Below, piece after piece: positions 3,926-31,898 of a stretch of 32,109 bases of DNA (its first letter is position 1; every line of letters begins with the position of its first letter). Source of the DNA: Nitrosopumilales archaeon (GTDB lineage: Archaea; Thermoproteota; Nitrososphaeria; Nitrososphaerales; Nitrososphaeraceae); the NCBI GenBank assembly GCA_044507735.1, contig JBIQJB010000024.1:1-32109 (forward strand). The letters run 5' to 3'. The notes under the pieces are model-generated. The model was not told where the DNA came from. It did not search any database and saw only the letters and a list, made by a program, of their open reading frames with translations. The position numbers were made by a program, and so were the translations under genes.

Positions 3926-5962
3926 TTGACGCAGAAGCCTACTGTCGAGGTTGCAGCTGTTGCTCAGCAAAAGTCAGTGAAAGGGAAGGTCAAATATGAC
4001 AAGAAGGCAGAATCAGAATTCTTTGTTGACAACTCTGCTCTAGCAGGCTTTACTACAGAGCGCATTCTATACATGGCTGTCAGGGAGCTCATCGAAAATT
4101 CGCTTGATTCTTGCGAGACGGGCCACATCCTTCCCAAGATATCGCTGTCGCTCAAAATGCTCGATCAGGCAAACGATCTCTGGATAATAACCTGCGAAGA
4201 CAACGGAATCGGTGTTCCGTCTGACAAAGTTCCTGTCGCAGTATGCTCGTTCTTGACATCGGGCAAGTATGTCGAAAAGCAGCAGCGCGGCCTTTTTGGC
4301 GTCGGTCTGAAGATGATTGCTGCCTTTTCAACAAAGGATACGATTCATCCAATCAAGGTCTGGTCGAAATCACAGGACGAAGGTGTCGAATACTACTTTG
4401 AACTCCGCACAGACATCAGCACGAACAGGCCCATCCAGCTTGCTAAGAAGGTGCTCAAAGGAGAAGATTGCAAGATCACCGGTGACTCTGGTTTCAGGGT
4501 TGAGGCTATACTTCATGCAAAACTATCCCCTATTACAAGGAACAACATAAAGAGTAAGATCAACGAGTATATCAGCCAGACAAGCGTCGTAAACCCTTAC
4601 GCCATTATTGAATACGAGACCGATGAGGGAAGAGTCACATTTGAGAGAAGGACAGAGGTAATGCCGCAGCCCGCAAGAGAAGTCCTTCCGCATCCCGCAG
4701 ACATGGATCTCCAGACTCTCAAGAAGGCGATAATGAATTTCATGAACCAAAAGACGACGCTTCAGGGCGTCCTGTCGGCGTCCTTCCAAAAGATGTCAAG
4801 CGAAAAGGCAAAGGACATTATTGCCAAGGCCGGTGTTGAAAACAAGCCAGCTGACAAATATACTGAGAACGAGCTTATCGAAATTGTAAAGGTGTGTAAG
4901 CACACACCATTCCAGCAGGCAAACACAGACCACTTGAGCCCCATAGGTGAGGAGATCCTAACCACTGGAATGACTTCTGAATATACGATTGTAACAACAA
5001 GAGAAGCCAGTCAGTCGTCATCATCAACTGCTGAAGGCGGCGGTGGCGCTCCAGAAGTCCAGAAACCCCAGCTTACAGTCAAGATATTGAAGCCGGCATT
5101 GACAGCCTATTCTTCCCGCACATGTGTCATTAACAATCGGCCGACCATAGTAGAGTGCGGCATTGCGTATGGTGGCGACATCCCTTCATTCAAGCTCTAT
5201 AGGTTTGCAAATAAGATTCCTCTGCTGTATGACGAGGGATCCGATGTTGCCAGGGAAGTCGTGTCCGAAGTGGAGATTAACAAGATGGGCATCACGAAAA
5301 AGGAAGCAAAGGAGCAGTTTGCCAACGTCGGAGCGAAATCCGACAGGGCAGTGGAGCTCTTGCCGTTGCACATATTCTTCCACATATGCTCCACAAAGAT
5401 ACCCTACAAGACTGCGGGCAAAGAAAGCATAGCTTCTGAAGGCGAGCTGAAAAGGTACATGAAGTCTTGCCTGTCAGAGTTATACAGGAAGGTGAGTGCG
5501 CAGATTAGAAAGGAGCTGCGCATGAAGGACGCTGTCAACAGACTCAACCTATACAAATACTACATCCCTCTAGTTGTAAGCGCGATTTCCGAATCAATCA
5601 AGGTTGACCCAGACAAACTGGAACAGGCGTTCACCGAGCTCGCAGAGAAGCACGTAAAGGTAGAACAGCTGGCAATCGCCCCAGTTGAGAAGAAAGAAGA
5701 CAAGATCACCAGTGAGCGCATCAAGGAAGAGACAGAGGGAGAAGGAGAGGTTCAGGAAATAGTGATTGACGACGAGGTTATCCGGCCGGACAAAGAGCAG
5801 ATCGCAATCAACGCTGCACGGAAAAAAGGCAAGACTTCTAAGCCAAAGAACAACAAGAAGAAGGACGGGGAAGCAGCCCCAAGGACCCTCAATGAAAACA
5901 GCAAGCAGCAAACTCTGGATGCAATGATCGAAGACAAGCCGAAAGAAAGGAGAAGAAAGTAG
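3926..5962 (+). CDS. top6B: DNA topoisomerase VI subunit B (divergent)
   Basis: GHKL motifs VRELIENSLDS, EDNGIGV, TSGKY and QQRGLFGVGLK; PHP; transducer motifs RFANKIPLLYD and STKIPYKTAGKESIA. Confidence 0.93.
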   Translation: MTQKPTVEVAAVAQQKSVKGKVKYDKKAESEFFVDNSALAGFTTERILYMAVRELIENSLDSCETGHILPKISLSLKMLDQANDLWIITCEDNGIGVPSDKVPVAVCSFLTSGKYVEKQQRGLFGVGLKMIAAFSTKDTIHPIKVWSKSQDEGVEYYFELRTDISTNRPIQLAKKVLKGEDCKITGDSGFRVEAILHAKLSPITRNNIKSKINEYISQTSVVNPYAIIEYETDEGRVTFERRTEVMPQPAREVLPHPADMDLQTLKKAIMNFMNQKTTLQGVLSASFQKMSSEKAKDIIAKAGVENKPADKYTENELIEIVKVCKHTPFQQANTDHLSPIGEEILTTGMTSEYTIVTTREASQSSSSTAEGGGGAPEVQKPQLTVKILKPALTAYSSRTCVINNRPTIVECGIAYGGDIPSFKLYRFANKIPLLYDEGSDVAREVVSEVEINKMGITKKEAKEQFANVGAKSDRAVELLPLHIFFHICSTKIPYKTAGKESIASEGELKRYMKSCLSELYRKVSAQIRKELRMKDAVNRLNLYKYYIPLVVSAISESIKVDPDKLEQAFTELAEKHVKVEQLAIAPVEKKEDKITSERIKEETEGEGEVQEIVIDDEVIRPDKEQIAINAARKKGKTSKPKNNKKKDGEAAPRTLNENSKQQTLDAMIEDKPKERRRK

Positions 5963-30567: not shown

Positions 30568-30641
30568 TGGGCCGTAAGGGATTTGAACCCTCGACCTTTC
30601 GATTATCAGTCGAACGCTCCACCAAGCTGAGCTAACGGCCC
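30568..30641 (-). tRNA. tRNA-Ile (GAT)
   Basis: Reverse complement GGGCCGTTAGCTCAGCTTGGTGGAGCGTTCGACT-GAT-AATCGAAAGGTCGAGGGTTCAAATCCCTTACGGCCCA folds as a cloverleaf; no intron; TTAAATAA about 25 nt upstream. Confidence 0.96.
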
Positions 30642-31245
30642 GTTCAATTCAAAATTGATAGCGTTATTTAAGCGTGTGCACAGGCAGGGTTTCGACTCCC
30701 ATGTCCCACAGTAGTCCCAGTCCAAAAAATAGGGTTCTTCCCCGCCACTTTTCGATCCCCTGTCCATCGCGACTGGATGTGAGCATCCTCCGATTTGCGC
30801 CCAAAAGATCACTGCGGCTTTACGCGAGCCTCTGACCTAACCTAGCAGCAGAGATTCAAGAATCCAGTAGGCCGCGTTCCCTATTCGTTGTTCAAACATC
30901 TGACAACATAGCTGCATGATGGCCCCTGATTGTATTCGTACAATATTTGGGAGCTCTTGCTTTCACCTCTTATGCCAGAGTGGCGGCAGTGGATTTTCTG
31001 ACTCTGCCCTTCGAACATATCGCGGGTCAACTCTTTCTCCAAAAAGTCATTCGCCATCTGCCTTAACGTTTCTATGAGTTGCAGTAATTGCTTGACCGAA
31101 CACGGCTGCTTGACTCTCTTTCTGTTGCCAACAATAAGAAAATCAGACTACAAGTGCCCAATGAAGCAGATGAGCCGACAATCTGAGAGAATCAGCAGAC
31201 CAGTACACTTTTAACCCTATTGCTCAAAAATAGCTCTGATCTAAA

Positions 31246-31554
31246 ATAGGCAAGAAAAAGGTACTTTCTGAGTCGGAGTTGAAGGAAATGGTCCTGCCTC
31301 AAGAGGGCGAGCTGCTGGGCCGCGTCATCAAGCTGGTCGGCGGCGACAACATAATTGTAAAGTGCACTGACGGCAAGGTAAGGACCTGCCGGATCAGAGG
31401 AAAGATAAAGAGAAGGATGTGGATAAGGGACGGCGATTTGGTCCTTGTTGCGCCTTGGGACTTTCAGTCAGACAGAGCTGATATCATCTGGCGATACATT
31501 TCTGCCCACGCTGAGAAGATGAAGGCAGACGGGCTGCTGCAAGGCCTCGACTAG
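31246..31554 (+). CDS. eif1A: Translation initiation factor aIF-1A, apparent ATA start
   Basis: GELLGRVIKLVGG...CRIRGKIKRRMWIRDGDLVLVAPWDFQ..RADIIWRY. The frame extends upstream as ATA-GKKKVLSESELKEM, bounded by an in-frame TGA at 31237. Confidence 0.92.
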   Translation: MGKKKVLSESELKEMVLPQEGELLGRVIKLVGGDNIIVKCTDGKVRTCRIRGKIKRRMWIRDGDLVLVAPWDFQSDRADIIWRYISAHAEKMKADGLLQGLD

Positions 31555-31627
31555 GCTGATTGGTTTTTCCTACAGTTAAAGGGTAACGCAAATATCCATA
31601 TAGAGCTGTCTGCAACCACACACACGC

Positions 31628-31786
31628 TTGGTCAGGATAGCAAAGAGGCTTGTACGCTACAATATCGCGGAAGGCAAGTCTTCTGAAGTCAGAAGGCGCA
31701 TGCAGTACTCCTGCGAAAAATGCGGCAAGAGGTTTGACGCTTGGAAACACCTGCGCCAGCACAAGGTTGAAAGTCATTCTTATTGA
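31628..31786 (+). CDS. C2H2 zinc-finger microprotein, not in ORF track
   Basis: (M)VRIAKRLVRYNIAEGKSSEVRRRMQYSCEKCGKRFDAWKHLRQHKVESHSY* matches Y-x-C-x2-C-x3-F-x5-L-x2-H-x4-H; start TTG 31628 or ATG 31700. Confidence 0.75.
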   Translation: MVRIAKRLVRYNIAEGKSSEVRRRMQYSCEKCGKRFDAWKHLRQHKVESHSY

Positions 31787-31821
31787 ACATTTAAATTGTC
31801 AACAAATGGGCTAAAGTTTGT

Positions 31822-31898
31822 GGGCCGGTAGTTTAGTCCGGTAGAATACCTGCCTTGCACGTAGGTGGTCGTGGGTTCAAATCCCACCCGGTCCACCA
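31822..31898 (+). tRNA. tRNA-Ala (TGC)
   Basis: GGGCCGGTAGTTTAGTCCGGTAGAATACCTGCCT-TGC-ACGTAGGTGGTCGTGGGTTCAAATCCCACCCGGTCCACCA; G3:U70 Ala identity pair; CCA encoded. Confidence 0.96.

Follow-up and report, generated by a model that had tools for sequence, protein, structure and literature searches.

The window, by which we mean the whole 32,109-nucleotide stretch of DNA analysed here, is contig C13 of assembly G000 (2.33 Mb in 55 contigs, 97% complete) and carries on its plus strand a gene for the translation initiation factor aIF1A. The product matched Pfam family PF01176 over residues 21-83 (E 5.2e-22), scoring 77.7 bits against a cut-off of 30.2 and spanning profile positions 1-64 of 64. 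The gene is flanked by tRNA-Ile(GAT) at 30568-30641 on the minus strand and by tRNA-Ala(TGC) at 31822-31898 on the plus strand, and the stretch between aIF1A and tRNA-Ala holds a 52-residue ORF (31628-31786, plus) whose product has a C2H2 zinc-finger-like motif. The features around the start of the gene are as follows.

31205-31217, plus strand: putative promoter motif ACACTTTTAACCC with the TATA-like box TTTTAA (31209-31214), read in the window and recurring in Nitrososphaera loci.
31237-31241, plus strand: TGATC, which contains the in-frame stop TGA (31237-31239) and as a whole is a Shine-Dalgarno (SD)-like match to the complement of the 16S rRNA 3' end, spaced 4 nt from the ATA.
31246-31248, plus strand: ATA, the probable aIF1A initiation codon, which aligns with ATG/TTG/GTG in 57 distinct loci and with ATA/TTA in 104.
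31249-31287, plus strand: basic N-terminal tail of thirteen codons, GKKKVLSESELKE, delimited by codon-position entropy and synonymous changes.
31279-31290, plus strand: TTG 31279 and ATG 31288, the first canonical in-frame codons and rival start sites.
31246-31554, plus strand: full aIF1A coding sequence of 102 codons followed by a TAG stop; the part encoding the eIF-1a OB domain is at about 31306-31494.

The aIF1A frame runs TGA (31237-31239) TCT AAA ATA (31246-31248) GGC AAG AAA AAG GTA CTT TCT GAG TCG GAG TTG (31279) AAG GAA ATG (31288), and reading the window from the stop at 31237 to the TTG at 31279 we encountered no ATG, GTG or TTG in this frame. With ATG, GTG and TTG as starts, the ORF list holds a single aIF1A ORF of 91 residues (31279-31554); with the start list of NCBI table 11, the ORF covers 31246-31554, encodes 102 residues and has ATA as its first codon. 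Everything that the preliminary description had reported here was found again as described, namely the ATA in the aIF1A frame, the stop at 31237, the TTG at 31279 as first canonical codon, and the TTTTAA box at 31209-31214, which sits inside ACACTTTTAACCC. Assembled contigs from four RNA-library runs cover parts of the window outside positions 31246-31248. One of them (308 nt, run X1) is identical to 31260-31567 with zero differences and begins 3' of the ATA; a relative's RNA contig, with 54 differences, covers 31292-31860.

A first protein search for orthologs recovered the gene in 37 of 41 related genomes, with alignments that open at the Gly following the ATA. The codon before this Gly was ATA in 16, TTA in 8, ATG in 3 and TTG in 3 of the 30 loci returned. 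Ten added loci gave TTA twice, ATA once, ATG six times and TTG once, and further named public loci from Nitrososphaera and Nitrososphaeraceae metagenome-assembled genomes had ATA or TTA in 80 of 80 cases. In a class-wide sample, an aIF1A match was present in 200 of 201 genomes. The 60 start regions of this sample divided by family: the window's family (f1, six genera) had NTA in 16 of 16 (9 ATA, 7 TTA), and nine other families had ATG, GTG or TTG in 44 of 44.

The pooled set comprised 180 loci, 179 of them usable (L173 was too short, and also reads TTA), and was reduced to 161 distinct 90-nt start regions. These contained 104 NTA codons (62 TTA, 42 ATA) and 57 NTG codons (38 ATG, 11 TTG, 8 GTG), all directly preceding the invariant Gly; one of the TTA loci (L020) comes from a genome flagged unpublished (G009). 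Within the window's family, all 117 motif-scanned loci, representing 99 distinct sequences and many independent assemblies, carried ATA or TTA, and the pooled set held no canonical start among f1 loci. Five NTA loci lie outside the family and belong to four other families (G025, G026, G031 with two copies, and G040). ATT, ATC and CTG never occurred at the start position in the 161 distinct regions.

Across the 104 NTA loci, positions 2 and 3 of the codon were invariant and position 1 was A or T (entropies of 0.97/0/0 bits). The third-position A was thus kept in 104 of 104 distinct loci, a canonical start being one A-to-G change away and neighbouring third positions carrying 1-1.9 bits. Many loci have in-frame stops 0-5 codons upstream of the NTA with no canonical codon between, such as TGA TCT AAA ATA in the window and in L007, TAG ATA in L030 and TAG GAA ATA in L027; in the last of these a canonical codon follows only at residue 53, within the OB fold. 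The codon of most relatives, TTA, has two mismatches to AUG and is not a single-mismatch near-cognate codon. Judged across these loci, the conserved ATA/TTA is neither chance nor sequencing error.

The codons downstream of the NTA behave as coding sequence. Over the 13 codons after the start, mean column entropy in the 104 NTA loci was 0.35/0.28/1.31 bits by codon position, compared with 1.46/1.47/1.52 bits over the 13 triplets before it, where no coding periodicity was apparent. The tail, GK(K/R)KVL(S/N)E, is conserved with synonymous changes, Ser being encoded both as AGY and as TCN in relatives, and the same tail is encoded by relatives with canonical starts. At position 14, Met is retained within the window's genus, and other genera of the family have Leu. 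The three-base periodicity begins at the Gly codon, which shows that the tail is translated, and coding constraint sets in exactly at the NTA codon. The preliminary description had proposed both a non-canonical ATA start and a translated basic tail; the alignment of ortholog codons at this position and the periodicity from the Gly codon bear out the former, and the entropy pattern and synonymous changes over the 13 tail codons the latter. It had also named ATG in orthologs as a finding that would speak against it: within the family the outcome is in its favour, all orthologs there reading ATA or TTA, and ATG, TTG or GTG is found in other families. Considering these comparisons together, NUA is very probably the true start of aIF1A.

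Public protein calls reflect this unusual start in several ways. Among the best 120 cluster representatives of aIF1A, 73 were extended upstream by spurious residues, with L (48 calls), I (24) or M (1) before the Gly; L and I are what TTA and ATA would give when read through. Another 33 of the same best 120 lacked the tail motif in their first 80 residues, being mostly truncated proteins with downstream starts, and 14 began with Met-Gly. One of the Met-Gly calls is encoded by L047, where the codon is ATA, which indicates that some annotation pipeline already accepts ATA. TTA is absent from the start list of NCBI table 11, and with that list the ORF search on L013 falls back to a downstream CTG. 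The unusual start also matters for annotation of the gene. A literature search over the full text of papers returned no report of a non-canonical aIF1A start.

To place the trait among other genes, all stop-to-stop ORFs of the whole assembly were compared with 761 kb of G033 (a complete genome of another family, with a TTG start) and, in a second screen, with 761 kb of G141 (complete, low-GC, same family, ATA start). Results were filtered by best frame and flagged rows judged by eye; the screens cover conserved genes in which no canonical codon is reached until 4 or more codons downstream of the start. They yielded 487 (G033) and 527 (G141) best ORF pairs, and aIF1A stood out in both, with identities upstream of its first canonical codon of 8/11 and 8/12, respectively. 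No other start-less gene appeared in these approximately 1000 ORF pairs, the sole other convincing outlier being an interrupted carB. The remaining flagged rows were rRNA pseudo-ORFs, low-complexity shadow frames or genes with a canonical codon at the aligned start; the rows on C22 (5/6 identical), C17:8953 (6/10) and C54 (6/12) were dismissed for a canonical codon at or next to the aligned start. The invariance of the third-position A, together with the gene-specific nature of the trait, indicates that the non-canonical start of aIF1A is maintained by selection.

In the carB-like outlier, which encodes the carbamoyl-phosphate synthase large subunit (G000 C31, minus strand, plus-strand coordinates ~4327-4396), the coding sequence is interrupted and its start is not at issue: it carries a small hairpin-shaped insert between ...GSGAIKIGEAGES and RKFDYSGSQ..., with conserved flanks GGCGAGAG / CCGCAAG. 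In G000 the insert is 12 nt long and holds an in-frame TAA; those of G033 (C1, near 103702; 13 nt) and G141 (C1; 17 nt) shift the frame, and the reading frame is restored in all three genomes once the insert is removed. From its sequence it looks like a mini-intron or an mRNA bypass element conserved across Nitrososphaerales. No paper among those listed by a literature search dealt with this insert.

To follow the history of the codon, a quick maximum-likelihood tree was built from 88 distinct proteins; it is poorly resolved outside the family and has many unresolved forks. The 70 rows of the family group together in it as a single clade (SH-aLRT 97), and each of them is NTA. Two Nitrososphaera paralog groups are sisters within it: group A has ATA throughout, and group B has TTA apart from two rows with ATA. 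ATA is also the codon of the low-GC genus g18, which lies outside the tree sample. ATA is thus found in at least three separate places in the family (the A paralog, two B rows and g18), so the first base must have changed more than once; the third base never went back to G within the family. As for the origin of NTA itself, at least three label changes fit best, and a single origin may also account for the pattern.

Several Nitrososphaera genomes encode aIF1A twice. One paralog has ATA and shares at least 92% identity with that of the window, and the other has TTA and shares ~85%. Such pairs are L047 and L070 (on the same public contig, ~12 kb apart), the copies at 2356813 and 32782 of G203:C1, and those of G003 and L031/L058. 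In the window's assembly the ATA copy of aIF1A was the only one found. One TTA-type copy (L120, G015:C59:7781-8080) is interrupted at residue 13 by an in-frame TAG; this paralog may be decaying.

We then compared the sequences upstream of the two classes of start. The 16S rRNA 3' end of the window's genome is GGATCACCTCCTTAG. Within positions -18 to -1, its complement was matched over 4 nt or more in 75 of 104 NTA loci versus 6 of 104 in a control window, and over 5 nt or more in 40 NTA loci versus 0 controls (of 104). The spacing of these SD-like matches peaked at 4 nt (TGATC type, as in the window, where the match is no longer than the 5-nt TGATC) and at 7 nt (GGAGGT type, in other genera). 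Canonical-start loci, by contrast, showed no SD enrichment (31/57 vs 23/57).

The position of the putative promoter also differs between the two classes. From the end of the TATA-like hexamer to the NTA codon the distance was 29-38 nt in 101 of 104 loci and 42 nt in one, the other two having no match, whereas 21 of 41 hexamers at canonical-start loci ended 22-25 nt before the start, as leaderless mRNAs would be expected to show. In L205-L222, L114 and L116 (f13 and others) the aIF1A ATG, GTG or TTG follows the end of a TTATATA-type box by 22-25 nt, and this spacing in the canonical-start sister family suggests that its aIF1A mRNAs are probably leaderless. At the NTA loci the box lies beyond the approximately 22-27 nt that mark a leaderless mRNA. 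The ACACTTTTAACCC motif recurs at a fixed distance in Nitrososphaera loci of both paralog groups and, by archaeal promoter geometry, probably acts as the promoter. The aIF1A mRNA of the family would accordingly have a short, SD-bearing leader, and many sister lineages would be leaderless and hence in need of a cognate codon. Where NTA has replaced a canonical start, the distance from TATA box to start is longer as well. TAGG was invariant in 37 of 37 aligned leaders. A structured mRNA operator of the ribosomal-protein type was considered and rejected: RNAalifold gave 0 pairs in 37 sequences over -14 to +58, with no conserved structure around the start.

Turning to other components of initiation, both aIF1/SUI1 genes of the genome begin at ATG. 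The second of these is a divergent paralog (G000:C20:16271-16480, minus strand) scoring 52-66 bits versus 70-79 for the main copy, and it was found in six of seven family genomes (G000, with counterparts in G141, G143, G159, G177 and G180). None of the 86 genomes of family f13, among them the unpublished G153, and none of 3 of f9 had it. Extra aIF1 copies also occur in family f18, which uses ATG. In the four NTA genomes from other families, which are 75-92% complete, aIF1 gave one match each and no second paralog turned up. The link between this paralog and NTA is therefore suggestive within the family only and not general, a lead and not an explanation.

The initiator tRNA gene (G000:C33:7699-7804) has A1:U72, three G-C pairs in the anticodon stem, a CAT anticodon and an ordinary loop; with these features the gene looks ordinary, and an unusual initiator tRNA was rejected. 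The gene was missed by ARAGORN and found by the Rfam tRNA model at 36.9 bits. It bears an intron-like insertion of ~30 nt downstream of the anticodon arm, not at the canonical 37/38 position. A blastn search of sampled halves of G033 and G141 gave no match.

These observations can be brought together as follows. A non-canonical NUA codon would serve as the start of aIF1A in the window and in all Nitrososphaeraceae. It is AUA here, is UUA in most relatives, and would sit on a short mRNA leader (about 5-13 nt) with no predicted structure. The complement of the 16S 3' end, 4-7 nt upstream, would place the NUA in the P site, where initiator Met-tRNA would pair with it imperfectly; imperfect pairing would make the start intrinsically weak, and selection would keep it so. 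Both the position of the transcription start and the weakness of the codon in this organism are points that we infer. The likeliest purpose would be to tie aIF1A synthesis to the stringency of the pre-initiation complex (aIF1, aIF1A, aIF2) against non-cognate starts. We consider the chances of this explanation as a whole, a weak NUA start with stringency-linked aIF1A synthesis, to be about even.

The regulatory part of the proposal draws on precedents. Passages of PMC4705826 and PMC6237735 describe that archaeal aIF1 discriminates against AUU in Sulfolobus and that eIF1 and IF3 autoregulate through weak starts; the fidelity role described there is that of archaeal aIF1, not of aIF1A. A selected, gene-specific non-canonical start on an initiation-factor gene is the hallmark of infC- and eIF1-type loops, and with an aIF1 that rejects AUU, feedback is the best available explanation; the invariant third-position A, one change away from a canonical start, and the confinement to one gene lend it indirect support. 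Its sign could be either way, as the basic N-terminal tail of yeast eIF1A favours suboptimal sites according to PMC5756025, and the loop could thus be positive instead of negative. That NUA serves factor-dependent feedback of either sign is, by analogy with these systems, a real possibility that we rate at somewhat under even.

The codon may alternatively act as a fixed throttle that holds aIF1A output low, or matched to other factors, with no sensing of any factor. All the evidence for a real and conserved weak start fits such a device equally well, as does the lack of an operator-like structure in the leader. However, a weaker SD, a weaker promoter or any near-cognate codon would serve the same end, and the strictness of NUA on a gene of the initiation machinery, with no other case among the approximately 1000 ORF pairs, points to a link with initiation. 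We therefore regard a mere throttle as unlikely, though one of the more credible alternatives.

It is also conceivable that the codon is not weak in vivo, the A at +3 being read as G through A-to-inosine editing of the mRNA or through a fraction of special initiator tRNA or of tRNA with a modified C34. Edited AUI or UUI would be equivalent to the normal starts AUG and UUG, and in mitochondria a modified tRNA-Met (modified C34) reads AUA at initiation. Such decoding would fit the invariant TAGG and the restriction to ATA and TTA, which are ATG and TTG with G replaced by A; were a weak start all that is needed, AUU, AUC or CUG should be found too, and only NUA occurs. It would also explain a double-mismatch UUA on an essential gene. 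Codons of this kind, with two mismatches, give near-background initiation in E. coli start-codon surveys, and it is difficult to see how a factor both essential and abundant could start at UUA without further help. On the other hand, the initiator tRNA gene has its ordinary CAT anticodon and loop, general readability of NUA should give more such genes and the screens found none, and we know of no mRNA editing in archaea. Although we judge it rather improbable, specific decoding of the +3 A stays a live reading because of the double mismatch of TTA and the exclusive use of G-to-A versions of ATG and TTG. A dedicated mode of NUA initiation in Nitrososphaeraceae, by editing, by a modified or second initiator tRNA or by a relaxed mode dependent on the aIF1 paralog, could form a private channel for aIF1A. 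We assign this a low probability; if true, it would be a new archaeal initiation pathway and not merely a weak codon.

Initiation downstream, with the conserved tail as untranslated leader, is very improbable: TTG 31279 and ATG 31288 are the only canonical codons and the 33 tail-less public calls mostly start downstream, but the periodicity and synonymous substitutions of the 13 tail codons, the Leu at the Met14 position in other genera, the next canonical codon of L027 within the OB fold and the same tail in canonical-start relatives all speak against it. Hardly any weight falls on termination-reinitiation at a tiny upstream ORF or on readthrough of the upstream stop, for although NTAGG holds a TAG in the +1 frame and in-frame stops lie 0-5 codons upstream, 68 of 105 ATA/TTA loci have no ATG, GTG or TTG in the TAG frame (an upstream ORF there was rejected on this ground) and many have one codon between two stops, the in-frame upstream stretch has no coding periodicity, and no upstream gene abuts, the tRNA-Ile being on the other strand 600 nt away.

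Returning to a weak NUA start linked to initiation stringency, its interest lies in what it may let the cell do, namely tie aIF1A production to the start-codon strictness of its ribosomes. Feedback on start stringency is textbook knowledge for bacteria (infC) and eukaryotes (eIF1, eIF5), and our literature search found no case from archaea, nor any that involves IF1/eIF1A, a factor conserved universally. In this instance, an abundant family of soil ammonia oxidisers has kept ATA or TTA in every locus examined, through gene duplication and first-base changes. This offers a testable system for the role of aIF1A in archaeal start-codon fidelity and for how a two-mismatch UUA starts an essential protein.

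Known systems share parts of this arrangement. Termination-reinitiation coupling explains genes without good start signals in archaea and bacteria (PMC10666635); aIF1A differs in having neither a conserved upstream ORF nor an abutting gene. In Staphylococcus aureus, non-canonical starts with extended SD pairing (PMC13009471) likewise combine a weak codon with close upstream rRNA complementarity. The aIF1A match is, by comparison, short (4-7 nt), lies in a very short leader and concerns one gene. Mitochondrial AUA initiation is similar in that a third-position A is read by a CAU-type anticodon, but it is a genome-wide reassignment, whereas here one gene is involved and ATA is otherwise an Ile codon.

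Among eukaryotes, eIF1 (AUG in poor context) and eIF5 (upstream ORFs) exert stringency feedback through factors homologous to the archaeal set, according to passages of PMC4705826 and PMC6237735. These cases use scanning and Kozak context, whereas aIF1A has an SD-like leader, a non-AUG codon and is the eIF1A homolog; we found no literature report of such a loop for eIF1A. In bacteria, IF1 works with IF3. The counterpart of IF1 in archaea is its homolog aIF1A (PMC4705826, Table 1). The IF3 gene, infC, resembles the archaeal gene in being an initiation-machinery gene with a conserved non-canonical start behind a ribosome-binding site, kept by selection. Its start is AUU and is autoregulated through the discrimination exerted by IF3, whereas aIF1A has AUA or UUA, with a mismatch at the third position and, in UUA, two mismatches; the archaeal gene belongs to the IF1/eIF1A family instead of encoding IF3, and its regulation is proposed by analogy. 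Finally, the infC trait is near-universal, whereas that of aIF1A belongs to one family and a few scattered lineages.
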